Part shown: positions 1 through 10,733 of the stretch, in pieces | Numbering within the stretch: the first letter of the stretch is position 1 | How the letters are laid out: each line of letters begins with the position of its first letter | Assembly: GCA_042217545.1 (NCBI GenBank) | Contig: JBDGSM010000028.1 | Location: forward strand, 1 to 10,733 | Source: Candidatus Nanohalobium sp. | GTDB lineage: Archaea > Nanohalarchaeota > Nanosalinia > Nanosalinales > Nanosalinaceae | Length of the DNA: 10,733 nt | Direction of reading: 5' to 3' | Position numbers and translations under genes: made by a program | Notes under the pieces: model-generated | Databases searched by the model: none | What the model was told of the DNA's origin: nothing | What the model saw: only the letters and a program-made list of their open reading frames with translations

Positions 1-111
1 GGTATGTGGTTTGAAGGCCTGACTCCCGACCACGAGGTATACGCTTTTTCGGAGGGAGAGATTGATGAAGGTGTGCGTGAAATAGTTGAAAGTTATGCTG
101 AAGGCCTCTAG
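1..111 (+). CDS. 3' end of an acidic hypothetical protein (partial, runs off the window)
   Basis: Frame 1 is open from base 1: GMWFEGLTPDHEVYAFSEGEIDEGVREIVESYAEGL*. Composition is halophile-like, and its TAG overlaps the stop of the convergent ORF at CTAG 108-111. Confidence 0.65.
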   Translation, partial: GMWFEGLTPDHEVYAFSEGEIDEGVREIVESYAEGL

Positions 112-818
112 TTTTCAAATTCTTCTGCTTTCCTGATCTGTGCTGAGGCGTTCAGCAGAAGGAAGTCTAGGTTTTCTGCCTTTTCCAGCAGTTCACAGGA
201 TATTTCGGAGGTTTTTTCCTTCATGTCTTCTAGATTTCCGATCTTTTTCTTTGTCGCCTCGCTTTTCCCTTTAGTGTCCAGCTCTATGGTTTCAAGGTAT
301 CTTGAAGCAGACAAAAAGTGGTGTACGTGTTTTTCTCTGAGTTTGTGGAAGAGGTCGTTCTCTATCTCTTTTTCTATGCTGTTTAAGGCCTTTTCGTCAG
401 GGTATTTTCTGAAGCCGGTTTTCCACAGGTCTTTGACTTCGTATTCTTCACCATTCAGGAGTTTAACGGCGTTTTCCAGGCAGTTGATGGCTGTGCCGTA
501 GGCCTCGGTGAGGTGTGTGTTATCTTTTCTGCTGTGTTCTGCGTATTTTTCTTCCAGTTCTTCTACCTTTTCCTGAAGTTCCGATGTATCGGGGCTTTCC
601 ATGCTGTTTTTTGCTGTTTCCAGCTTTCTCTTTTTCCGGGTGTAGAAGTTGAGGGCGTTTAACTGCTCCTTTGTGTCTCCCGGGAAGTCGGCCTTAGCTA
701 GGGATAATTCGATGTCGTCTTCTGGTTCTCCTATCTCCTCTTCTATAGTTTCTCTACTTTTGTCTATCTGTTCCTGGCAAACTTCAATAAGATCTAATAT
801 TTTTTCTTCCGTTGTCAT
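108..818 (-). CDS. Family A helical/coiled-coil hypothetical protein (copy A7)
   Basis: 236 aa. Shares EEEIGE.E...AKADFPG.T and C-terminal ELL.KA..L..L with the other A copies. SD-like GAGGTGAG lies upstream of the ATG. Confidence 0.9.
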   Translation of the reverse strand: MTTEEKILDLIEVCQEQIDKSRETIEEEIGEPEDDIELSLAKADFPGDTKEQLNALNFYTRKKRKLETAKNSMESPDTSELQEKVEELEEKYAEHSRKDNTHLTEAYGTAINCLENAVKLLNGEEYEVKDLWKTGFRKYPDEKALNSIEKEIENDLFHKLREKHVHHFLSASRYLETIELDTKGKSEATKKKIGNLEDMKEKTSEISCELLEKAENLDFLLLNASAQIRKAEEFEN

Positions 819-857
819 GTTTTTCTCACCTCGTCTTTTATCCTGGTTTTGAGCAGT

Positions 858-1505
858 TTATCCAGTAATTTCTTTTCCTTCCTCATATCGGTTTTGGAAT
901 TCGTCTACTGCTCTTCCGAGGCCTTCCCATCTCAGAGTGTTTTCTCCTTCCAGTTCTTTTACGTCCTGGATGTAGGAGCTTACCTCTTCTAGGCCTTCTG
1001 TAAACTCGTATGCTCCTTCCAGCGAGAAGTAATCGTCTCCGGTCGTTCTCGGTAACTGAGGTTTCTCTTCTCCGGTGAACTTTTCTGGATCCTTGTCCGG
1101 GTTCCATATCTTTGGGTCGGAGTGGAAGAGGTAGTCTTCACCTGTTGAGTCTCTGTATCCTGTTATGTGTACCCCTAGAAGGCCTGAATCCAGGTCTGAG
1201 TTAGATATTTCGTCTCTTCCTATCTCTTTTTCTCCGGTGTCGAGTGTTTCTGTGATGTCTATGTTGTAGAAGAATCCGTCTTCATCTATATCTTCATCTC
1301 TTGATAGGAAGTTGTCTGCCTCATCTGCGTTAGGAGGGTTGGTGGTATTTATATCGACTTCATAGTTTAGTTGAGCTTCCTGACCGAACTCTTCTTCTGT
1401 ATCTACTTCACTTAATGTTTCTGTGTCTATCCCTCTCGTCAACGTCCTCAGGTTGTAGTTTTCCCACCTTGCAGGGAATACCGGGTCTTTGTAGTGGAAG
1501 CTCAC
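858..1505 (-). CDS. Family B acidic hypothetical protein (copy B4, intact)
   Basis: Motifs GFFY, GLLGVHITGYRD, DYLFHSDPKIW, RWEGL. I moved the start from TTG 1511 to GTG 1505: it gives MSF as in B1 and lies 28 nt after the TTTA box. Confidence 0.88.
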   Translation of the reverse strand: MSFHYKDPVFPARWENYNLRTLTRGIDTETLSEVDTEEEFGQEAQLNYEVDINTTNPPNADEADNFLSRDEDIDEDGFFYNIDITETLDTGEKEIGRDEISNSDLDSGLLGVHITGYRDSTGEDYLFHSDPKIWNPDKDPEKFTGEEKPQLPRTTGDDYFSLEGAYEFTEGLEEVSSYIQDVKELEGENTLRWEGLGRAVDEFQNRYEEGKEITG

Positions 1506-1514
1506 ATCCAAAAC

Positions 1515-1597
1515 TTACTCATCCAGACATAAATAGGTTGTCGTTACGAGAAGATAACAAAGAAAAAGTGATATGTGTTAGGCCTTTCTTCAGGCCT
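1515..1597 (-). promoter_or_regulatory. Duplicated promoter cassette of family B genes (copy 2): AGGCCT hairpin, T-rich tract, palindrome, TATA
   Basis: Near-identical to 6003-6082. TTTATG at 1533-1528, imperfect palindrome TCGTTA-N8-TAACAA at 1541-1560, hairpin TAGGCCT-ttcttc-AGGCCTA. Confidence 0.8.
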
Positions 1598-1668
1598 ATT
1601 TTTTCTTCGATTTTTCTCTCGATTTCCTCTTTTCTCTTTCTTACTTCTTCAAGCGTTTCCAGTTTCAT
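1519..1668 (-). pseudogene. Truncated family A 5' fragment (A6), broken at an AGGCCT site
   Basis: ATG overlaps the A5 stop (ATGA). Reads MKLETLEEVRKRKEEIERKIEEKIG, then runs into the promoter cassette and stops at 1519 (49 aa). Not in the ORF track. Confidence 0.8.
1599..1653. repeat. 55-bp direct repeat with 3422-3476
   Basis: 54/55 identical by hand alignment; encodes LEEVRKRKEEIERKIEEK in both A6 and A3. Confidence 0.9.
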
Positions 1669-2360
1669 AGTTTTTTCTTTTTTCCTCTTGTCTCTTTGAG
1701 TTGGACTGCTGCATTTGTTAATAAGTAGTCGAGGTCTTCTGCTCTTTTCCTTAATTCTTCTCTTAATCTTTTTTTATGATTTATCAGAGATTCTAAGCCT
1801 TTATTTTTGAGTTCTGTTTTCTGATTTGAATCTCCGAGAGTTTTTGAGGTCCTCAGGAGTAAATGCACGTTTTCTTCTCTGAATTCTTTTAGAAAGTCGT
1901 TTTTGAGGCCTAGTTGGTCTTCGATTTTCAGGTATGGGTCTGGGAATGTGATTGCTGCTGATCTTCCGAGGCGTTCTGCTCTGTATTCTTTTCCTTTTAG
2001 TAGTTTTTGTGCTTCTTCTAGGCTCTGGACTGTGGAGCTGTATCCGTACATTATCTGTTCTTTGCCTTTATTGTCTGTTTGCTGTCTTTCTTCCTTAATT
2101 TCCTTGATTTTTTCTTCTATTTTTGATGTCTCTATTTCTTGTAGAGCTTCTTTAACTGGCTCAAGAGATTTTTCTTCGGAATTAAGTGTCTTCAGGACCA
2201 TCATGTCCTTATCGGTGTTTCCCGGGTATCCTTGTTTGGTGGCCTCTCTTAGAATGTTTTCTTCTTTTGCTCCTAGTTCTTCCTGTATTTCTTCTTTGAT
2301 TTCTTCTTTCTTTTCTTCAATTACTTCCTCAAGGTCTTGAAGTTCTTCGAATAATTTCAT
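1665..2360 (-). CDS. Family A hypothetical protein (copy A5)
   Basis: 231 aa; EELGAKEE...KQGYPGNT and C-terminal EELRKRAEDLDYLL. Confidence 0.9.
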   Translation of the reverse strand: MKLFEELQDLEEVIEEKKEEIKEEIQEELGAKEENILREATKQGYPGNTDKDMMVLKTLNSEEKSLEPVKEALQEIETSKIEEKIKEIKEERQQTDNKGKEQIMYGYSSTVQSLEEAQKLLKGKEYRAERLGRSAAITFPDPYLKIEDQLGLKNDFLKEFREENVHLLLRTSKTLGDSNQKTELKNKGLESLINHKKRLREELRKRAEDLDYLLTNAAVQLKETRGKKKKL

Positions 2361-2382
2361 GGATTTTCAGTCCTCCAGTTCT
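2321..2382. repeat. 62-bp direct repeat with 3464-3525 spanning the A-A gene junction
   Basis: 56/62 identical; both copies read ...ELED* aaatcc (A/G)TG KLFEEL..LEEV. Confidence 0.9.
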
Positions 2383-3050
2383 CTGAGTTTTTTCGAGGTC
2401 TTATGCAGCATTGCGTTGATATCTTCTGCTCTCTGTTTTAGTTCGTCTCTTATTTCTTCTATTTCTCTATCTATTTTTTTCTTCTCCTCAAAGTCCTTCT
2501 CTCTGATTTTGGAGGTCTGTTCAAGATTTCCTTTTTTGTTCAGCAGTGATGATGAGTTCAGAAAGGCCTGAACGTATCTTCCTCGGATTTCTTTGAGTTC
2601 TTTCTTTTCCTCGTCGGCTATGATTTTGCCGGTTTCCGGGAATCTGTCTTTTGATTCCAGGTCTCCGAGTTTAGGGTCGTAGTCCTTTCCCTTCACAAGT
2701 TTAGCGGCGTTTTTCAGTAGTAGGCTAGCTCTGTTGGATTTTTTGGCGTCTTCGTCCCAGTTACCGGAGCTTCTTGGGTGCTCTTCGTCTAGCTTTGCCT
2801 TTCTGTCTTCGATCATCTCTGCATTGAGGTCCTGAAGTGTTTGCTGAACCGATTTAAGGATTTCAAGTCTTTCCTTATAGAATTCAAGTAACCTAGCGTG
2901 TCTCTGACCTTCTTCGGAGTTCTCCGGCTTGAGCGCCTCCATCTCTGGGTGTTCGAACTCTCCTATCTCTTCCTCAAGGTCCTTTCTGTTAGCTTCTACC
3001 TTCTCCTCGGTTTCCGATATAATTTTCTCGAGTTTTTCCCTGTATTTCAT
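2367..3050 (-). CDS. Family A hypothetical protein (copy A4)
   Basis: 227 aa; LEEEIGEFEHP and C-terminal DELKQRAEDINAML. Its ATG overlaps the stop of the B3 remnant. Confidence 0.9.
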   Translation of the reverse strand: MKYREKLEKIISETEEKVEANRKDLEEEIGEFEHPEMEALKPENSEEGQRHARLLEFYKERLEILKSVQQTLQDLNAEMIEDRKAKLDEEHPRSSGNWDEDAKKSNRASLLLKNAAKLVKGKDYDPKLGDLESKDRFPETGKIIADEEKKELKEIRGRYVQAFLNSSSLLNKKGNLEQTSKIREKDFEEKKKIDREIEEIRDELKQRAEDINAMLHKTSKKLRELED

Positions 3051-3244
3051 GTTTCCAGGTCTATAGGTCTGTCGTTTTCATAGCTTTTTCTGAAGGATTT
3101 TACCGCTCTCCCGAGACCTTCCCATCTCAGGCCTTCCGTCCCTCCTTCTCTGTCCGCTATATCTGTTAGATAGCTTTCTACCTGTTTAAGGCCTTCGGTG
3201 AACTCGTAGTTGTTTTCTACCGTGAACTCGTCTTCTCCCTCTGT
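3047..3244 (-). pseudogene. Start-less 3' remnant of a family B gene (B3)
   Basis: Translates TEGEDEFTVENNYEFTEGLKQVESYLTDIADREGGTEGLRWEGLGRAVKSFRKSYENDRPIDLET*, homologous to the B C-termini. Not in the ORF track. Confidence 0.85.
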
Positions 3245-3503
3245 ATTTTTCCAGAAGTTTTTCGTGTTCTTCTGTGTTTATTGATTCAGTTATTTTCTGG
3301 GCTTCTTCTATGTATCTTTCAGCACTTTGAAGCTTACTGTGGAGGCCTGCTTCCTCCTTGAGTTCCTCTGATAGCCCTGCGGAAGCTATCCTTCGAGTTA
3401 TAGGGCCTTCTTCTTTCCCTGTTTTTTCTTCGATTTTTCTCTCAATTTCCTCTTTTCTCTTTCTTACTTCTTCAAGGCCTTCAAGTTCTTCAAATAATTT
3501 CAC
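3186..3503 (-). pseudogene. 3'-truncated family A gene (A3) fused out of frame to the B3 remnant
   Basis: A-like up to ...EKLLEKYR (~3240). The tail GRRRVHGRKQLRVHRRP is B3 DNA read in the wrong frame. Confidence 0.8.
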
Positions 3504-3509
3504 GGATTT

Positions 3510-4154
3510 TCAGTCCTCAAGTTCTTCTATATTTTTCTGGGCGGCTCTTAGATAGTGTTCTGCATCTTGAGCTTTTTCCAGCAATTCTTTCCTTTCTTTT
3601 TCGATGGTTTCCGCAAGTTCATCGAGTTTTTCCTGGCTTTCTTCTGTTATGGCGTGTTTGTTTTCTGTTTTCAGAGTTTGTGATGCTGCAGAAAGCTTAT
3701 TTGCTGCCAGCAAAAGGTTTGAAACGGTTTTTTCGCGTTCAAGGCCTTCGAGTTCTCCTTCGAGGTCTGGTTCTGGGAACAGTCTCTTTTCCCGGTTTCC
3801 TTCTAGAGATTTTATCAGGAGGTTCAGGCTACGGTATATTTTGTCGCTTCTTTTGATCTCTTCGTCATTATAGCTGTCTGGGTCGCTGTATTTTCTTTTT
3901 TCCTCATGTTTATCTCTTAGTTTCCTGTAATACTGGATATCTACCTGATCGAGGTGTTTATCTGCTTTTTCCAGCGATGAGGTTACCGGACGGAGTTTGG
4001 ATAGAAGCGCTGATTCTTCCATGAATTCCTCGGTTCTTCCTTCTTTCGCCATCTTTGCGTCTACAGAGGCCTCTGGTTCTCCGAGTTCTTCCTTTACTTT
4101 TTTCTCTACATCTTCTTTCAGTTCTTCTGCCTGCTCCAGACTTTTAATCTCCAT
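3510..4154 (-). CDS. Family A hypothetical protein (copy A2)
   Basis: 214 aa; EELGEPEA and ERKELLEKAQDAEHYL. Overlaps the B2 end by 11 nt. Confidence 0.9.
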   Translation of the reverse strand: MEIKSLEQAEELKEDVEKKVKEELGEPEASVDAKMAKEGRTEEFMEESALLSKLRPVTSSLEKADKHLDQVDIQYYRKLRDKHEEKRKYSDPDSYNDEEIKRSDKIYRSLNLLIKSLEGNREKRLFPEPDLEGELEGLEREKTVSNLLLAANKLSAASQTLKTENKHAITEESQEKLDELAETIEKERKELLEKAQDAEHYLRAAQKNIEELED

Positions 4155-4740
4155 AACCTAATTCTTCTCTGGAAATTTTTACGTTTTCTCCTTTTTTGAT
4201 CGAGTCGTGGAATCCTGCTACTGCGTCTCTAAGGCCTCTCCATCTGTGACCTAGTCTTTCATCTCTATCTGCTATGTCTGTAAGGTAGTTTTCAATCTCG
4301 TTTAGGCCTTCGTCCAGGCTGTAGTTACCTTCAATTGAGAATGGCTCGTCGGTATACTGTAGTCCTGTTTCAACGTCGGGTAGTCCTTCGTCTGTTTCTT
4401 CGTAGTTCATTTCTCCTTCCTCTGTCCACATCTTGGGGTCAGAGTGGACAAGATAGTCGTCTCCATTTTCGTCTCTGTATCCTGTAAAGTGTACTGCTAG
4501 AAGGCCTTCGTCCACTTCTTTTCTGGCAGTTTTTCCTTCGTCGTTCACCATTTCTCTTATCTCTACGTTGTAGAGGAAGCCGTCTTCTGATTCCTCGAGT
4601 TCTGGACCTTCGCCTTCAAGTATGTTGTCTCCGTTTCCGTTCATTTTCGTCTCTATTTCGTAGTTTAGAAAGTCGAATTCTTCACCGAATTCATCCTCTA
4701 GACTGACATCTGCGTAGACCTCATCTGATTTCCTGTCTTG
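4144..4740 (-). pseudogene. 5'-truncated family B gene (B2); may still be expressed from internal ATG 4644
   Basis: B homology (SDEVYADVSLEDEFGEEFDFLNYEIET) continues upstream of ATG 4644 to ~4728. An in-frame TAG sits at 4741-4743. The first ~25 codons and the promoter are missing, but the core HFTGYRD/HSDPKMW is intact. Confidence 0.75.
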
Positions 4741-5338
4741 CTATGGTCAGGTAGGCCTCTATATCCTGTGCTTTTCTGAGCAGCTCTTCTCTTTCCTTAT
4801 CTATCTCTTCTGCGAGCTTCTCAAGTTTTGCATCTCCTTCTTCGTCGATATGCGGCATGTCTTTCTTTCTGAGTCTTCTTGAGGCCTCGTACATCTTTCT
4901 GGCTGCGTGAAGAAGTTTTGTGATTTCTTCATTGTCTTCGCTCTCTATTTCACTTTCTCTCAGTGTTAGAGGATGTTCTTTCGGTTCAGAGTTCAGCAGT
5001 TTCAGTGCGTTCTCAAGGGCTTTGTAGGCCTTATCGGCTTTTTCGTGTTCCTCTTCGTTTTCGTGGTAGGTTTCCTGGGATTTTTCGTCCATCTGGTCTC
5101 TGAGTTCCCTGATTTCGTCTGTATCTATCTTTTCCAGGATCTTCTCTGCTTTTTCCAGAGATCCCTCTGCCGTGGAGATTTTTGTGTGCATCTGCTCCAG
5201 CTTCCTTGTTTCTCCAGGAAAGTCGGCTTTCGCTGCCTCGAACTGTACTGGCTCTTCGAGTTCACCCACCTCTTCTTCTACACGTTTTTTTATCTCTTCT
5301 TTCAGTTCTCTGAGATGTTTCAGTGTTTCAAGCTCCAT
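4721..5338 (-). CDS. Family A hypothetical protein (copy A1)
   Basis: 205 aa; EEEVGELEEP..AKADFPGET and EREELLRKAQDIEAYL. Overlaps B1 by 11 nt. Confidence 0.9.
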   Translation of the reverse strand: MELETLKHLRELKEEIKKRVEEEVGELEEPVQFEAAKADFPGETRKLEQMHTKISTAEGSLEKAEKILEKIDTDEIRELRDQMDEKSQETYHENEEEHEKADKAYKALENALKLLNSEPKEHPLTLRESEIESEDNEEITKLLHAARKMYEASRRLRKKDMPHIDEEGDAKLEKLAEEIDKEREELLRKAQDIEAYLTIARQEIR

Positions 5339-5993
5339 ATCTCTGTTTTCCTCCGTTGATATTTACAGGTTTTCCTGTAGAGATGCCTTCTCTGAATGTG
5401 GAAAGTGCTTCTCTGAGGCCTCCCCATCGCGTACTCAGCGGTTCTTCTTCCTCTTCTGATATCTGCTTGAGGTATTCTTCTGCCTGTTTCAGGCCTTCAT
5501 CCATTCTGTAGTTCCTCTCGTCTGAGAACCATTCTTCTGTTTCTTTGAGGCCTGCTTCTATATCGGCGAACCCGTCTTTTTCCTCGTATTTTCTCTTTCC
5601 GTCTGATGTCCATTTCTTTGGGTCTGAGTGGACTATGTAGTCGTCTCCTTCTTCGTCTCGGTAGGCTGTGAAGTGTACCGTTAGCAATCCGTCGTCTACA
5701 AGGTGTCTTCCTTCTTTTCCTGAGCCTTTTTCGACCTGCTCCATGATTCTGAGGTCGTAGAAAAATCCGTCTTCACTCATTTCTAGGTCAGGTCCTTCTC
5801 CTTCCAGTAGCTTCTCATTCGTGTTGTTCTTCTTTGGAGTTACCTCTAGATCATAGTTCATCCAGTTATGTTCATCGCCAAATGTGTCTTGTATGTCTAT
5901 CTCTCTGTTGACTTCTGTGGAGAAGCCTAGACTGGTCGCTCCGCGGGCGTTCTGATACCAGCTGTCAGGATCCAGATGACTTGTAAAACTCAC
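5328..5993 (-). CDS. Family B acidic hypothetical protein (copy B1, intact)
   Basis: 221 aa; GFFY, GLLTVHFTAYRD, DYIVHSDPKKW, RWGGL. GTG start lies 28 nt after the TTTA box. Confidence 0.9.
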   Translation of the reverse strand: MSFTSHLDPDSWYQNARGATSLGFSTEVNREIDIQDTFGDEHNWMNYDLEVTPKKNNTNEKLLEGEGPDLEMSEDGFFYDLRIMEQVEKGSGKEGRHLVDDGLLTVHFTAYRDEEGDDYIVHSDPKKWTSDGKRKYEEKDGFADIEAGLKETEEWFSDERNYRMDEGLKQAEEYLKQISEEEEEPLSTRWGGLREALSTFREGISTGKPVNINGGKQRYGA

Positions 5994-6002
5994 ATAGGAA
6001 GG

Positions 6003-6082
6003 TTACTCATCCAGACATAAATAACTTGTTGTTACGAGAAGATAACAAAGAAAAGATGATGTGTGTGGGCCTTGAAAGGCCT
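6003..6082 (-). promoter_or_regulatory. Probable radA terminator plus family B promoter cassette (copy 1)
   Basis: After the radA stop come a GGCCTT/AAGGCC hairpin and a T-rich tract, then palindrome TTGTTA-N8-TAACAA (6029-6048) and TTTATG (6021-6016). Repeat of 1515-1597. Confidence 0.8.
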
Positions 6083-6089
6083 TGATTTT

Positions 6090-7040
6090 TTATCCGTCGA
6101 TTATTCCTGCGTCCTTGACTTTGAAGACTGCTTCTCCTTCAGGCATGTACGGTGAGTCGACGAGTCTTGCGATTCTCTTGTCTTTCTTGCTTTTTCTGAG
6201 GTAGACTCTGACTGCGGAGTTGTGTGCGACGATGTGGCCTCCGATCGCGCTTGTAGGGTCTCCGAACATCTGGTCTGGGTTGGACATGACCTGGTTGGTG
6301 ACCAGTACCGCAAGATTATGAGAGTTTGCAAGCCTCAGCAGAGTGTTCATGTGTTTGTTGAGCTTCTGTTGCCGCTTGGCTAGCTCTCCTCTTCCGACGT
6401 AGTCACTTCTGAACTGTGCTGTGAGCGAGTCGACTACGACGAGGCCTATGTCGTTGTTCTGGCAGATCTGCTGTGCTTCGTCCGCGAGAAGCATCTGGTG
6501 GTCCGAGTTGAACGCTCTTGCGACATGGATCCCTTCCAGTACTTCTTCTGGGTCCTGTCCGTTGGCTTCGGCCATGTCCTCGATTCTTTCGGGGATGAAA
6601 GTGTCCTCTGTGTCGAGATAGATCGCCTCGCGTCCGAGGCCTCCTTCCTCCTCAGATAGCTGAACGTTTGTCGCCAGCTGGTGGGAGATCTGTGTCTTTG
6701 CGCTTCCGTATTCTCCGTAGACTTCCGTTATGCACTGCGTTTCGACTCCGCCGCCGAGGATCTCGTCAAAGTTCTCACTGTTGGTGTGGATCCGTTTCAT
6801 GTCCTGTCTCTGATCGTAACGGTCCTTTGCGGATTCAAAGCCGATGTCCAGGTGCTTGCGAGCTTCTGTGATGATGCTCTGCGCCTTCTTGTCTCCAAGA
6901 TCGGCGACTTCTCCAAGTTCTCCAGAGCTCATGGTCGCTATGGACATCAGTTCCTCGTACCCTGCATCTCTAAGCTTCTCTGCAGTTTTTCCTCCTACTC
7001 CTTTGATATCCTCGAGATCAACGTCGTTGTTTTCTGCCAT
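6090..7040 (-). CDS. radA: DNA repair and recombination protein RadA
   Basis: N-terminal HhH (LEDIKGVG), FxxA polymerisation motif (GFESA), Walker A GEYGSAKT, Walker B VVVDSL, GRGELAKRQQKL, TNQV, GGHIVAH, RIARLVDSP. SD GGTGAT upstream. Confidence 0.98.
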   Translation of the reverse strand: MAENNDVDLEDIKGVGGKTAEKLRDAGYEELMSIATMSSGELGEVADLGDKKAQSIITEARKHLDIGFESAKDRYDQRQDMKRIHTNSENFDEILGGGVETQCITEVYGEYGSAKTQISHQLATNVQLSEEEGGLGREAIYLDTEDTFIPERIEDMAEANGQDPEEVLEGIHVARAFNSDHQMLLADEAQQICQNNDIGLVVVDSLTAQFRSDYVGRGELAKRQQKLNKHMNTLLRLANSHNLAVLVTNQVMSNPDQMFGDPTSAIGGHIVAHNSAVRVYLRKSKKDKRIARLVDSPYMPEGEAVFKVKDAGIIDG

Positions 7041-7088: not shown

Positions 7089-8081
7089 TTAGGCCTCCAT
7101 GATGTCAAGGAGCTGTTCAAGTTCTTTTTCCGTGTCGAGGACTTCGTACTGGTTCGCGATAATTTCGATCCTTCCGAAGTAGTCGTTGTAACGTGTTCTT
7201 CCTTCGATCTCGACTTCCTTGCCTGTTGCTTTCTCAGCTCCTTCCTCCACTGCGTCGATATCGCCTTCAGTCTCCTCTTCCTCATCGATCTCCAGGAGTT
7301 CGCGGGCCTGGTCCCGGAAGAAAACTGTCCTGATCGAATCGGTTCCATCGTCCACGACTGCGGAGATCGCCAGGGCCTTGTTCGGCTCGACCTCTCCGTG
7401 CTCGTCACATACGAAATCGCCGTCATCGTTCTCTCGTACCGATGTTCCGCATTCCGGGCATGTGCTGTAGAAGGGATTTGAAGTATACACGTTCATTATC
7501 ATTCCTTTGATTCTGTAAGTGGCACCTTCATCGCTTACGCTGCTGATCGAGGCCTCCTGTGCCTCGTTCGGGTTCTTTACTTCTCCGATGTCGTCCTCGT
7601 CCGCCATCTTGACCTGGACTTCGTCTCCAAGCCTCAGCTCCGCGTTTCCCTGATTATCTTCTACTGTGTAGGCGCCTGAGATCTCGATGACATCATCTTC
7701 GTCGATCTTCTCTGCGATCTCTGTCTGTTCGTCCCAGAGCGTTACTCTGATAGTACCTGTTTCGTCGCCGAGGACAATGTTCTGTACCTTTCCGTCCTCT
7801 TCATCGTCGTCACGCTCGAAAGTGTTTACGTCGCTGATATCGACCACTCTGGCTTTCAAACGCACTTTCCTCATCTCCGGGACAATGTTCTCTACTTTGA
7901 GCTCTTGGTCGCCGCCTTCTGCGACTGCAACACCGTTCTCTTTGGCGACAAGATGTACGGCTCCTTCTTCGCTGACAAGGCCTTCGAACTCTTCCATTTT
8001 CTCCTCTATCTCTTCCTTTACTTCGTCTTCTTCGAGCTCTGTCTCGTCCACTATCTTGGCGATTATGTCCTCGACTTCCAT
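7089..8081 (-). CDS. rpa: Replication protein A (OB-fold ssDNA-binding protein with Zn finger)
   Basis: OB-fold motifs GDETGTIRVTLWD and DDGTDSIRTVFF, Zn ligands CPEC...CDEH, helical N-domain (GLVSEEGAVHLVA); directly upstream of radA. Confidence 0.92.
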   Translation of the reverse strand: MEVEDIIAKIVDETELEEDEVKEEIEEKMEEFEGLVSEEGAVHLVAKENGVAVAEGGDQELKVENIVPEMRKVRLKARVVDISDVNTFERDDDEEDGKVQNIVLGDETGTIRVTLWDEQTEIAEKIDEDDVIEISGAYTVEDNQGNAELRLGDEVQVKMADEDDIGEVKNPNEAQEASISSVSDEGATYRIKGMIMNVYTSNPFYSTCPECGTSVRENDDGDFVCDEHGEVEPNKALAISAVVDDGTDSIRTVFFRDQARELLEIDEEEETEGDIDAVEEGAEKATGKEVEIEGRTRYNDYFGRIEIIANQYEVLDTEKELEQLLDIMEA

Positions 8082-8178: not shown

Positions 8179-8376
8179 TTATTTCAGGGCTTCCCTGACG
8201 TCTTCCCCGCGGACCGTCTTCCTGCCTTTTTCTTCGGCAATTGCTATCGCTTCTTCCGCTACGTCTCCCGCGAAAGTTTCCAGGATGTCGCCGAGTTCCT
8301 CAGCTCCTTCCTCGGATACTCTCTTGTCTCCCTGAGTCTTGATCATGTCCTTCATCTTCGCTACGGAAAATTCCAT
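8179..8376 (-). CDS. Archaeal histone (single HMf-like fold)
   Basis: 65 aa with RVS and GRKTVxxED histone-fold motifs. SD AGGTGA and TTTAAA box at ~8413-8418. Confidence 0.93.
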   Translation of the reverse strand: MEFSVAKMKDMIKTQGDKRVSEEGAEELGDILETFAGDVAEEAIAIAEEKGRKTVRGEDVREALK

Positions 8377-8503: not shown

Positions 8504-8803
8504 GTGGGGAAAAACGGGGGCAAGCAAGAGTCTCTGAAAGAGTTCTTTGTAAACGTCAAATCGGCGAAGATACTGGTATCTCTCAGCAATCCCACAACGG
8601 ATAACTACGCATCCCGGATCTCAAGCGATGTCGACTGCACTTATTCTCACACTGTCCGCATAATACAGAAGTTTGAGGACAGAGGCCTGATCAGTTCAAG
8701 GAAAGAAGGCAGGAAAAAGATGATAGAACTCACATCGGAGGGCATGGAGATAGCTGAGGATCTCGGCGACCTGATGCGCAGCCTTGAAGCCGCTGAAAGA
8801 TAG
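8504..8803 (+). CDS. Winged helix-turn-helix DNA-binding protein (MarR/ArsR-like fold)
   Basis: HTH YASRISSDVDCTYSHTVRIIQKFEDRGLI and wing KEGRKKMIELTSEG. GAAAG-TTATTAA promoter with the box 28 nt before the GTG. Divergent from the histone gene. Confidence 0.88.
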   Translation: MGKNGGKQESLKEFFVNVKSAKILVSLSNPTTDNYASRISSDVDCTYSHTVRIIQKFEDRGLISSRKEGRKKMIELTSEGMEIAEDLGDLMRSLEAAER

Positions 8804-8814
8804 AGGCCTTCGAG

Positions 8815-9204
8815 CTATTCCGGGTTGGATACCGTGACTTCGTATCCTTCAGGTGGCTCGGCTCCTCCTTCAAGTCCGTATCTCTCGATCTGTGTTACCA
8901 GGTCTTCAGCTACTTCTTCAGGTTCAAACTCTTCACCGTACATGCTGCTGGATACAGCCGTTCCGCTCATGAACTCCTCAAAGTCGTCGTTCTCCATCGC
9001 TTCGTAAGCATCTGAAAAGGTCACTTCGGAGACCTCGACATCCAACCTCGCCTTCTTAGAAGGGTTGTGCTTCCCTATATCGAAGATGTAACCTCTTCTA
9101 TTGTCCTCATCTACATCAGGTAAGTGACCTGGTTCACCGTAAAGAATCCTTTCGGGAGAATCCACGTCCCCCTCGATACCCTGGAGTTCAAAACTATCGC
9201 TCAT
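8815..9204 (-). CDS. Acidic hypothetical protein
   Basis: 129 aa, strongly D/E-rich; TTAAATA box ~31 nt upstream of the ATG. Confidence 0.8.
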   Translation of the reverse strand: MSDSFELQGIEGDVDSPERILYGEPGHLPDVDEDNRRGYIFDIGKHNPSKKARLDVEVSEVTFSDAYEAMENDDFEEFMSGTAVSSSMYGEEFEPEEVAEDLVTQIERYGLEGGAEPPEGYEVTVSNPE

Positions 9205-9318
9205 ATGTAACTAATAGGTAGCAAAAAATATTTAATGTTGTTTTCTGATGAGGCCTGGAAGCCTCACGGTTTCGCAGGGAGATATGTATCGATTACCCTG
9301 TGGCTCATCGAAGCAATG

Positions 9319-9599
9319 AGGTCGATCAAAAAGGAAGAAAGATCTTCAGGCCTTAAACCCAGATAATTTCCGCATTAGAGAGCTGTTGCTGCGCGGAGTA
9401 GATGATCTGTCTCTGCACCTGCCTGAGAAAGCAAGATTTCTTACAATCACATCCCGGCAATGATGGTTGCTGCCCTGCTCCGCAACCACTCTCCTGAAAC
9501 TTCTGGTGGTAACCAGGCTATGCTCTTGCGAGGGCAGAAATTCACAGTACCTGGGCAGAAGGCCTCCTCTAGTCGGGGCTAAAAGCTGATCAGAGACCT
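9319..9599 (+). ncRNA. Candidate structured non-coding RNA of unknown class
   Basis: No ORF of 60 aa or more. Nested helices found by eye: 9319-28/9587-99, 9348-54/9559-65, 9358-62/9551-55, 9365-70/9537-42, 9378-82/9489-93, 9393-9401/9475-83, plus local hairpins. G-U pairs favour the + strand. Confidence 0.45.
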
Positions 9600-9601
9600 G
9601 A

Positions 9602-10598
9602 TATTCTCACAATCCGAACAGAAAAGAGTGTTAATTATAGTCGAACATACAATGTTTTTAGAAAGGCTTTGGTGTTTCTCACAGGTAAAAACCTCTTGTT
9701 ATCCTGTAGTTTTTGGCGCTGGATTTTTACGGTAGAAGGCCTATACCTGTATTATGAAGATCACAAAGATCCAGGACGACGGTGAGCGGTTCATCATACA
9801 CGGCGATGGAAGGCTCCTGGAGGAGCTGAGAGATGTATTCGACAATATGGCTCTGGGAGTCTCCGTCACAGAGTCGGACAGAGGGGTCGCTAACATCCTC
9901 TATACGGAGAACAACAGGGATCTGGTGCTGAGGGTGCTTAACGATCACACTGAGAAATGAGACCCAATGAGTGTTGAAGGTAAATGAACAATCTGTAGGC
10001 CTTCTCCTGGTGTTCTGGTAATTCGCCGCACAACAGAGTTTCACAGGGTTAGAAGACTTTCCCGGTTACCTTGATAGGATATAGATAGGTAGAGAACAGC
10101 TAATAGCAGAGAGATCAAGGCCTGATACTTGCCCATTTGTTGTTTTCTCCGCTGTAGGCCTCCTGGTACTTCTCTGAGGATCCATTAGCTCGGCTATACT
10201 ATGGCGAGTTTCGCTGCTCCGGTCCTTTGGAGGCGGCATTTTGCCCTCTTCGCTCATGAAAGATTGTTTGGTTTTCAGCATTGTAATTTTAATGATGTTC
10301 GCTGATCTTCAACACTCAATTACCATGAGTGTTCAAAACTGGCGAACATCGAGGCTTATAGCGAAAGGCCTCAACATAAAGGAGGTATAGTAGAAATATG
10401 GCCGAGGCCGTTTCCTGGTATGTTCTTGGTGCATTAGGTTGGGGTCGCGCCCCAGATTCCTCACTAAATAAAGAAGGTATATCTTCGGCGTGTGAAAGGC
10501 CTGGTGTGATTTACCTGGTGTCAGTTATACCTTCTTTGTTAAGAAGGTTTTTCGATATTTAGGCCTGAAATCCTGTGAGTGTGTAAACTGTTTGAACA
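9602..10598. promoter_or_regulatory. Six dispersed copies of the palindrome TGTTC-N9-GAACA
   Basis: Copies at 9602-9620, 9629-9647, 9972-9990, 10296-10314, 10330-10348 and 10580-10598. Spacer length is fixed while its sequence varies. Confidence 0.7.
9754..9960 (+). CDS. Small hypothetical protein (68 aa)
   Basis: Acidic, globular-looking sequence, GC3-rich codons, TTTA box 28 nt before the ATG. Confidence 0.7.
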   Translation: MKITKIQDDGERFIIHGDGRLLEELRDVFDNMALGVSVTESDRGVANILYTENNRDLVLRVLNDHTEK

Positions 10599-10653
10599 CT
10601 CATTTAATTTTTCTGATGGTGCTTTTTATCTGGGCGGACTAAAACTTCTGTTT

Positions 10654-10733
10654 ATGGGAGTTGGTGAAAGCAAGCTGAACCTGTCGGTTCTTGGAGCGCT
10701 CTGGAAGGGCTGGAGCATACAGATCAAGGAAGA
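10654..10733 (+). CDS. 5' start of a hypothetical protein (partial)
   Basis: MGVGESKLNLSVLGALWKGWSIQIKE... is open to the window end; TTTATC box ~29 nt upstream. Confidence 0.45.
   Translation, partial: MGVGESKLNLSVLGALWKGWSIQIKE

Follow-up and report, generated by a model that had tools for sequence, protein, structure and literature searches.

Downstream of radA, in a 10,733-nt stretch of a Candidatus Nanohalobium sp. contig (hereafter the window), lies an array of two protein families, B and A. The two form a translationally coupled pair that has a promoter to itself and occupies a variable slot following radA, and this population has stacked and reshuffled several types of the pair. The array described in a first-pass annotation is real, and its minus-strand order is the one given there: B1, A1, dB2, A2, dA3 fused to dB3, A4, A5, dA6, B4 and A7 (d marks truncated or broken copies). 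Relatives are cited below by G or L numbers and sequencing runs by X numbers.

7089..8081, minus: RPA-like single-strand binding protein (Pfam OB-fold and Rep_fac-A_C), a conserved flank
6090..7040, minus: radA (Pfam Rad51, E 2e-85), conserved anchor preceding the variable slot
5986..6085, minus: terminator-like hairpin of radA with AGGCCT, then promoter copy 1 (repeat D7)
5328..5993, minus: B1, complete, 221 aa, alpha/beta protein; candidate site E85, H107, H122, D124, K135, R189
4721..5338, minus: A1, 205 aa, partner of B1; last few residues lost at the joint to dB2, a 5-nt microhomology
4144..4728, minus: dB2, lacking the promoter and the first ~24 codons; in-frame ATG at 4644
3510..4154, minus: A2, complete, 214 aa, partner of B2
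3464..3537, minus: A-end/A-start junction block, copy 2 (repeat D9), 85% like 2321-2394
3243..3503, minus: dA3, 5' part of an A gene, 83-85% identical to L026 A; type whole in L026 and L027
3047..3244, minus: dB3, last 65 codons of a B gene, fused to dA3 at a 6-nt microhomology
2367..3050, minus: A4, complete, 227 aa, partner of B3
2321..2394, minus: A-end/A-start junction block, copy 1 (repeat D9)
1665..2360, minus: A5, 231 aa, orphan (no B before it), lowest GC (0.37)
1580..1690, minus: B tail (7 codons) and dA6 (first ~29 codons), repeat D10; ends on AGGCCT at 1580-1585
1498..1585, minus: promoter copy 2, entered through AGGCCT
858..1505, minus: B4, complete, 215 aa from a conserved GTG; 75% identical to G001 B, dN/dS 0.14
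108..818, minus: A7, complete, 236 aa, partner of B4; modelled as all-helical
13..110, plus: 3' fragment of gene X, 32 codons, cut at its own AGGCCT (15-20)
1..20, minus: third promoter copy, start only, by sequence comparison; joint 6053>1, depth 148, run X2

Successive intergenic distances, in the order given, were -11, -8, -11, +6, -2 (fusion), -4, +6, -4, +74 (promoter) and +39 nt. Overlaps of 4-11 nt couple three of the pairs, and a 39-nt gap lies between B4 and A7. All five B genes or remnants of the window, and the B genes of all four other short-B loci, are followed directly by a partner A. Both complete B genes are preceded by an 81-nt repeat (5986-6066 and 1498-1578), which we take to be a promoter from the spacing usual in archaea; a TATA-like box lies 24-31 nt ahead of the GTG start of B1, and the element is kept before six of the six short-B starts compared.

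The array is flanked by radA, found at the same position in L012, L026, L028 and L035, and by a PRC-barrel gene. The rest of the flanking gene X was not found elsewhere in the assembly. Since the third promoter copy begins at positions 1-20, the array probably runs on past the contig end, to the left of the window. Read depth along the stretch ranged from 138 to 281 in the closest run and no contig piece listed spans all of it, so the exact order is provisional for a single molecule. One piece of run X2 matches 1624-3229 (dA6 start, A5, A4, dB3) with no difference and another piece covers 3447-4560; joints 1580, 3243 and 4724 are unbridged among the contig pieces listed. The genome itself is 92% complete. 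It carries two pilus-type ATPases, and the ComEC family PF03772 was found neither in it nor in the archaeal control genomes.

The polar motif ascribed to B in the first-pass annotation proved conserved: H107, H122, D124, G167 and R189 are invariant over 28 B sequences, and E85, Y79, Y111 (27/28 each) and K135 (26/28) nearly so. B is a single domain of 215-330 aa, and all copies align end to end, those in the array being 33-50% identical to each other. It has neither a signal peptide nor a membrane segment (highest 19-residue hydropathy, 0.09). The confident structural model (pLDDT 87) makes B a candidate new enzyme fold. Truncated dB2 retains every invariant residue, including all candidate catalytic residues, and in run X4 one contig connects 4731 with the promoter at 5985, which gives a whole B2 before A2. 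In dB3, 61-64 of the 65 residues are identical to seven full-length proteins, the type being whole elsewhere; a joint in run X2 (3244>1497) lies at its edge. The B tail preceding dA6 is of the L026 type, and tail and dA6 together match the B-end/A-start of L026 letter for letter. Genes of the same kinds exist intact elsewhere, and the truncated B copies are their decay products, not spare tips.

The earlier count of five intact A genes among seven holds in that five are essentially whole; A1 is ~4-5 residues short, and the last residues of A5 are replaced at a junction. Copies in the array are 23-39% identical to each other. A forms a helical bundle in which no polar residue is invariant, only G and L. 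A pore-forming role was rejected, as A has no hydrophobic segments. A2 bodies with an alternative start occur in P0036 and P0037.

Neither family is described in the libraries searched, in line with the first reading: no Pfam, NCBIfam or PADLOC family scored above cut-off. Pfam and NCBIfam returned no match for 22 A proteins; PADLOC (library dated 2023) gave two single-member matches for B (E 0.003-0.009) among 30 and none for A (0/22). PHROGs held no family match for B above cut-off, Rfam gave 0 matches, and the lone match among PDB sequences had E 0.11. ESM Atlas yielded no usable feature match (TM <0.4 on poor models). Foldseek of B against PDB and BFVD gave 0 matches at E<=0.001, and the VIA fold search no structural match (best Z 4.5 among 48,161 chains). 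For A, the best fold match (Z 10.5) was to generic bundles; a link to ESCRT-III (CHMP3/CdvB2, Z 8.8-9.0) was rejected as within the range common for helical proteins. A viral origin is unsupported, since B was absent from IMG/VR (93 pattern matches, 0 confirmed) and from GenBank phages. Close relatives of A and B carry nanohaloarchaeal names at NCBI, and the nanohaloarchaeal literature searched, with few subscription papers in it, contained no description of the locus.

B occurs in 9 of 70 genomes, after removal of one marginal match (G038, E 3e-4, an unrelated 536-aa protein). Short B and A co-occur in the same 4 of 70, with one marginal match set aside for each (for A, G045, 4e-4); also set aside were G005 and G018 for A' (below) and P0020 (coiled-coil, short match). 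Long B homologues in four genomes are followed by a different small helical protein, A', twice over in G000; A and A' show no homology (hhalign probability 0.1). In G047, two B homologues lack a partner gene downstream, so a guarding neighbour is not universal in the B family. In the searches made, neither B clade occurred outside the nanohaloarchaeal symbiotic phylum. A longer fused B form of 579-2000 aa was not found among 7997 candidates scored, which is weak evidence.

The radA-downstream locus varies between genomes and within populations, as a diversifying system was expected to. Four other loci hold a single B-A pair each, directly after radA and of differing allele types; at least five types exist. 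They cross genera, and several coexist within one brine population. In the genus-mate G002 the same slot holds a MazE-like and PIN pair. The small gene preceding B in G001 was tentatively labelled DUF433, without confirmation from Pfam. Between G068 and G070, RadA is 98.7% identical, B 38.5% and A 30.4%; between G001 and L026 the figures are 95.6%, 39% and 32%. Such swapping of one version at a time between lineages would be a pattern typical of poison-and-antidote genes.

Pairing is type-specific, as the term cognate in the first-pass annotation implied: partners recur together in relatives and in other runs. B4-A7 recurs in G001, where A is 62% identical to A7 (dN/dS 0.17), and B3-A4 in L028/G068, where the A behind the B3-type gene is 72-73% identical to A4. 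L026-type B goes with dA3-type A in L026 and in L027/G070, and contig pieces of other runs carry B2-A2 and B1-A1, the latter together on one piece in runs X3 and X6. Within a type the pairing is loose, because L026 and L027 are 95% identical in B but just 70% in A. Each of the five whole short-B genes of known context is followed by a whole A, A lacks a whole B in four places (A2, A4, A5, G068), and neither broken A (dA3, dA6) has a whole B before it; these pairing and asymmetry counts are small and come partly from related genomes. For the five types, the B tree and the A tree agree in shape (one of 15 possible), and the distance test was not significant (Mantel, r 0.69, p 0.10). Matched trees are no proof of binding, since neighbouring genes travel together. 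Within types, dN/dS of 0.05-0.30 indicates purifying selection on B and A, and in each matched pair B is the slower to change (dN of A and B, 0.22 vs 0.16 and 0.17 vs 0.03). In L028/G068 B is frameshifted.

AGGCCT, the over-represented palindrome of the lineage, stands at both promoter-duplication joints; nothing on AGGCCT in archaea was found in the literature searched. A 74-nt block (D9) lies at two A-A joints, and other runs have alternative joints at or next to it (4125>3467, 5323>3493, 3529>1679, 2387>3471). A-A joints and chains recur in runs of independent studies, and other brine metagenomes contain the same modules in different orders.

With moderate confidence, we propose to read the array as an allelic series of toxin-antidote-like pairs acting in the cytoplasm, piled up through recombination anchored at radA in which old B genes are disabled and their A genes retained. 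Incoming foreign DNA would pair with the resident radA end, its far end being joined illegitimately. Joining at the AGGCCT just before the resident promoter would add a whole unit and duplicate the promoter; joining within the resident B, at a microhomology of 5-6 nt, would delete the promoter and the old B 5' end and keep A. The A-end/A-start blocks could afterwards shuffle A genes. Truncated B with whole A thus needs no selection, because this insertion geometry alone deletes the resident B promoter and 5' end. B may be a metal-dependent enzyme, as E85, H107, H122 and D124 fall on adjacent strands in the strand order of the model, and K135 and R189 could bind phosphate. B would harm cells lacking the matching A, a putative stoichiometric inhibitor. 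After acquisition of a new pair, the cell would have to retain the old A for as long as the old B persists, and spare A genes would guard it against further B alleles brought in by gene transfer; old B genes would therefore decay and A genes accumulate. Addiction modules resist allelic replacement. The type pairing, the agreeing tree shapes, the co-occurrence of short B and A, the purifying selection within types, the allele swaps, the asymmetry between B and A losses, the polar invariants of B against only G and L in A, the PIN/MazE-like pair in the slot and the A' behind long B count for this proposal. The retention of all candidate catalytic residues in dB2, the lack of an export signal and of a fold relative for B, the partner-less homologues in G047, the insertion geometry, the loose pairing within a type, the non-significant distance test and the small counts count against it.

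It is unlikely that the locus is instead a two-gene antiviral or antiplasmid defence module, with B as effector, A as variable sensor or regulator, and extra A genes widening recognition and serving any B. The patchy distribution, the PIN/MazE-like pair in a hot-spot slot, the faster change of A and the excess of A over B copies would fit; PADLOC gave no match beyond the two single-member ones for B, strict type pairing argues that A acts on its own B, and the loci read hold no further defence genes. Quite unlikely is a dispensable two-subunit enzyme, or enzyme with chaperone, whose alleles pile up passively through additive radA-anchored illegitimate recombination. Every joint is mechanically explicable in that way (AGGCCT twice, 5-6 nt microhomologies, A-junction blocks), and it would suit the frameshifted B genes, the absence of B from most genomes and the partner-less homologues in G047. 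It leaves unexplained why five or more deep types are under purifying selection and exchanged between genera, and why A-A chains recur in independent studies.

Very doubtful, too, is an effector role in which B enters the haloarchaeal host or co-attached rival symbionts via the attachment site, A serves as its antidote or chaperone and the types form lock-and-key exclusion groups. Spare A genes would then have lasting value, and the restriction of both B clades to a symbiotic phylum in our searches and the several types within one brine population agree with it; against it, B has no signal peptide, membrane segment or delivery domain, and the loci read contain no transport genes. An assembly chimera threading through strains with one or two pairs each is highly improbable. 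Depth steps, alternative joints in run X2 and the unspanned stretch and unbridged joints among the pieces listed would be expected of it. The two continuous pieces, the A-A joints recurring in other studies' runs and the biological signatures at the joints are not, and chimerism would affect the exact order at most.

Among known systems, type II toxin-antitoxins resemble the proposed pairs as small cytoplasmic two-gene operons with their own promoter, overlapping stop and start, matched pairs and patchy occurrence. In those systems the antitoxin, which carries a DNA-binding domain, usually comes first, and specificity within their paralogue families is reportedly insulated. Profile searches gave neither B nor A a described family above cut-off and fold searches gave nothing clear; a remote relation to a described toxin or antitoxin may exist. 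Here, in contrast, the putative antidote comes second, is as long as B and has no recognised DNA-binding domain, and B-A alleles replace each other or stack at one site.

Membership in the CDI/Rhs/MafB polymorphic toxins, to which the first-pass annotation likened the locus, is not supported. Those systems fuse a conserved N-terminal trafficking region to unrelated toxin tips, and they share with the array a first gene plus small partner, start-less remnants followed by whole partner genes, and repertoires varying between strains (PMC4436062). B lacks a conserved N-terminal delivery part and all B are homologous end to end, so this is not a polymorphic toxin system; orphan modules there are unrelated toxin tips able to take the place of the active one, whereas B remnants are pieces of homologous genes. 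Parallels are also offered by the immunity-gene strings of type VII secretion (esaD-esaG, telC-tipC), whose toxins are secreted and of known activity: these have tandem non-identical partner paralogues, first-gene fragments inside the string, and short conserved gene-end blocks driving recombination, copy number and chimeras (PMC9484751). Unlike them, B has no delivery part, the families are unrelated by profile and fold search, whole promoter-B-A units are added at AGGCCT, and the flanks are radA and a PRC-barrel gene. The VARTIG modules of Thermococcales are likewise archaeal, hypervariable, recombination-shuffled and likened to polymorphic toxins, but are built on large Ig-domain proteins (PMC8416519); B and A show neither Ig nor membrane features. 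HIP1-linked site-specific recombination in cyanobacteria makes its joints at a palindrome that is over-represented (PMC4390886), and homology-facilitated illegitimate recombination uses a one-sided homology anchor with 3-10 nt microhomology (PMC6382021). Both are shown in bacteria, whereas here two AGGCCT and two microhomology joints point to them in an archaeon.

A further, improbable extension is that B is an enzyme toxin of new fold and that the B-A types act as lock-and-key compatibility groups among nanohaloarchaeal symbionts, for which Wolbachia CifA/CifB is an analogue. A matching A would then, improbably again, be needed to survive DNA or protein coming from strains of other types, for instance where they share a host cell. 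If this were true, the radA-AGGCCT slot would be a polarised memory, with new types at its head and old antidotes kept, and the iterated palindrome of the lineage would gain its first concrete role, as a recombination joint. The two AGGCCT joints are in any case a testable lead on the function of an archaeal highly iterated palindrome. With two small soluble families, at least five matched pairs, orphan partners and specificity controls, a conflict role is directly testable in a haloarchaeon. How DPANN symbionts compete or act on their hosts is largely unexplained, and the locus bears on this question.

The array lies on the minus strand downstream of radA, which was identified by a Pfam Rad51 match, on contig C21 of the Nanohalobium genome (G000), the first 10,733 bases of which form the window. 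Gene coordinates bore out the order, families and spacing described in the first-pass annotation for the enzyme-like family (B) and its helical partner family (A):

5993-5328, minus strand: B1
5338-4721, minus strand: A1
4728-4144, minus strand: dB2, broken B copy
4154-3510, minus strand: A2
3503-3243, minus strand: dA3, broken A copy fused to dB3
3244-3047, minus strand: dB3, broken B copy fused to dA3
3050-2367, minus strand: A4
2360-1665, minus strand: A5
from 1668, minus strand: dA6, broken A copy
1505-858, minus strand: B4
818-108, minus strand: A7

Overlaps of 4-11 nt or gaps of 6 nt join neighbouring genes; only B4 and A7 are preceded by wider gaps, of 74 and 39 nt. An 81-nt repeat is located upstream of both complete B genes (B1 and B4). 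Within it, a TATA-like box precedes the GTG start by 24-31 nt in 6/6 upstream regions compared of short B genes (the clade of the array copies, with A as partner). This spacing is that of a leaderless archaeal promoter, and the repeat fits a candidate promoter of this kind. A mini frame of six codons (ATG ... TGA; window 5992-6012 and 1504-1524, minus strand) shares bases with the GTG start at both B1 and B4; it is also present at the B gene of locus L026, is absent in G001 and L028, and may be a chance product within the promoter repeat.

Neither family had been recognised at first pass, and neither gave a match above the cut-off in Pfam, NCBIfam or PADLOC, nor did B in PHROGs. A three-copy B profile retrieved 21 proteins among 1.84 billion representatives; the matches with an organism name were Nanohaloarchaea, and one coiled-coil match was set aside. 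Across 28 B sequences, H107, H122, D124, G167 and R189 were invariant, and E85, Y79, Y111, P125, W190 (27/28) and K135 (26/28) nearly so. The B model (pLDDT 87.1, pTM 0.86) comprises strands 42-54, 77-89, 104-112, 118-129 and 132-136 and two C-terminal helices. Consecutive strands carry E85, H107, H122 and D124, which would form one putative metal site. Foldseek returned 0 matches for the B fold at E ≤ 0.001 against PDB and BFVD, and VIA-align reached a best Z of only 4.5 over 48,161 chains, an absence that, by the tool's own warning, is no proof of a new fold. Only G30, L114, L169 and L221 were invariant among 22 A sequences; the A model is all helix (pLDDT 85.5), and its fold matches were generic bundles only (best Z 10.5). 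No hydrophobic segment was found in either protein. On these features, B resembles a soluble enzyme and A a soluble binding protein. They are two undescribed families, B having no fold match.

A search of 70 genomes from the phylum detected B in 10 and A in 5, or in 9 and 4 after dropping one marginal match each. The A-bearing genomes (G000, G001, G068 and G070) are the same ones that carry the short B clade (support 98/100); this co-occurrence in 4/70 genomes agrees with the partnership proposed at first pass. A metagenome scan yielded five pattern matches, corresponding to three loci. Four other loci were counted, namely G001, L026, L027 (nearly identical to G070, one count) and L028 (nearly identical to G068, one count), each with one single B-A pair after radA. 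The G001 pair is of the B4-A7 type (B 75%, A 62% identical) and the L028/G068 pair of the B3-A4 type (B frameshifted, A 72% identical), while L026 and L027/G070 share a B type, their A proteins being 83% and 69% identical to dA3. The B-end/A-start of the L026 type is matched letter for letter at dA6, and dB3 shares 61-64 of 65 residues with seven whole proteins. Contigs of other runs contain a whole B2 behind the promoter and before A2, and also B1 with A1. With these recurrences, all five pairings are found elsewhere.

Beyond the array copies, the G000 assembly contains no A and one longer B homologue (C21:11731-12600). Long B genes are followed by a different helical protein of 130-150 aa (A') in G000 (two copies), G004, G032 and G064; no relation between A' and A was detectable. 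The G000 locus, a 289-aa long-type B followed by two paralogous small helical A' genes (L018:1732-3995 = G000:C21:11731-13994), sits 1 kb outside the window. The G014 homologue lies at a contig end.

The locus downstream of radA, proposed at first pass for comparison, proved variable between genomes. Within B and A types, dN/dS is 0.05-0.30. The B and A trees have the same five-type shape, ((1,(2,L026)),(3/4,4/7)), which linkage alone can produce; the correlation of B and A distances over the five types was not significant (p 0.10). Genomes G068 and G070 are 98.7% identical in RadA, 38.5% in B and 30.4% in A, and G001 and L026 are 95.6%, 39% and 32% identical, respectively; types are therefore exchanged rather than inherited with the genome. 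Between L026 and L027/G070, dS is 1.86 in radA and 0.35-0.70 in B, where a 150-nt stretch is 100% identical. Three AGGCCT sites (0.17 expected) occur in that B, in a lineage with 7 in 27.9 kb of sampled loci, which suggests that the type moved out of the AGGCCT-rich lineage.

The population survey covered four of 17 listed runs. Run X2 contains 95% of the window's sequence words and possibly comes from the source campaign, and is thus not independent. Its depth was 281 at radA, 262 at B1-A1, 138 at dB2-A2, 185 at A4-A5 and 192 at B4-A7; joint 3244>1497 (depth 67) gives B3 a promoter and start of its own, and joint 6053>1 has a depth of 148. At 5985 there is a loose end resembling one more B start. 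Runs X4 and X6, from other studies, contain the same modules reordered (4731>5985, 5323>3493, 4125>3467, 3529>1679, 3054>124, 1672>4431, 2387>3471); according to a tool warning, low-likeness joints may stem from other organisms, here meaning other strains or species. Among the pieces listed, none covers the whole array and joints 1580, 3243 and 4724 have no bridging piece, so the order on one chromosome is provisional; that the array is a chimeric assembly appears highly improbable.

AGGCCT is 15-fold over-represented in G000 (3,699 sites in 1.03 Mb; 44 in the window). Its density is likewise high in L012 and L026, reaches an intermediate level in L063 and L065 (8 and 13 in 3.9 kb) and is close to background in loci from most other genera. 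At window 1580-1585, A-like sequence of dA6 stops on AGGCCT and a promoter copy starts; at 15-20, the remaining 3' fragment of flanking gene X stops on an AGGCCT belonging to X, where a third promoter copy starts. The chance of a random donor end meeting AGGCCT is ~4%, but the two joints are suggestive only, since the radA terminator supplies a constant recipient site and a 6-nt match is itself microhomology. Microhomologies of 5-6 nt occur at the A1/dB2 and dA3/dB3 joints, fitting the reported process of homology-facilitated illegitimate recombination (PMC6382021). A 74-nt A-end/A-start block lies at or beside four alternative joints of other runs, as a short block at gene ends lies next to recombination joints in esaG and tipC strings (PMC9484751). 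The array would have grown by such recombination anchored in radA, with the AGGCCT palindrome serving as the joint when units are added, a role reported for HIP1 (PMC4390886).

Five B-less genomes were searched for the content of the slot after radA, and radA was found in four. Genus-mate G002, without B and A, carries a MazE-like gene (below cut-off) and a PIN gene there (L063:2507-3098); the other three carry unrelated genes. Slot occupants in G001 (L012:9069-9320), G069 (L064:2986-3630) and G003 (L065:2483-3148) are small and acidic with no Pfam match, and the G069 and G003 proteins resemble each other. Upstream of RPA-radA, an archaeal histone and a winged-helix gene (window 8179-8376 and 8504-8803) form a block syntenic across the relatives read. 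Within the gene-poor stretch 9200-10733, conserved in L026 (87% over 10312-10603) and without an Rfam match, two arms (10294-10318 and 10326-10350) make up a 25-nt inverted repeat, and a related third copy lies near 9968-9990; the feature may belong to a replication origin or a structured RNA. The window's last 55 bases (10679-10733) recur exactly ~155 bases further on (L018:734-889). In the spacer after A in L026 (L026:11330-11470), the opposite strand includes a stretch that, by eye, resembles a 5S rRNA gene.

That B and A are toxin-antidote pairs has, in our assessment, about an even chance of being correct. It is favoured by the rule that a whole short B is followed by a whole A (5/5), by the persistence of A without its B in four places, and by both broken A genes (dA3, dA6) having no whole B in front. 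Of the two proteins only B looks catalytic, the types are deep, conserved and mobile, and the slot of genus-mate G002 contains a toxin-antitoxin-like pair. Against it, insertion geometry by itself predicts 5'-truncated B genes without selection, some B homologues lack a partner (two in G047), which speaks against an obligatory pair, and the underlying counts are small. Passive accumulation of pairs is quite unlikely. A defence module with A proteins as variable sensors seems unlikely.

Delivery of B as an effector or exclusion factor is very unlikely in our view. The first-pass comparison with CDI/Rhs/MafB loci does not extend to membership: the trafficking region with variable tips that defines polymorphic toxin systems (PMC4436062) is absent from the array. 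The array is also unrelated to VARTIG (PMC8416519). Literature searches on nanohaloarchaea turned up no description of the locus, and the word 'toxin' does not occur in the main text of 10.1101/2025.02.15.638363.

Under the toxin-antidote reading, an addiction effect on the replacement of alleles would account for the keeping of old A genes, and secretion would not be needed. The array works in like manner to an orphan-immunity string, and represents two undescribed families in a new arrangement of a known kind of system.
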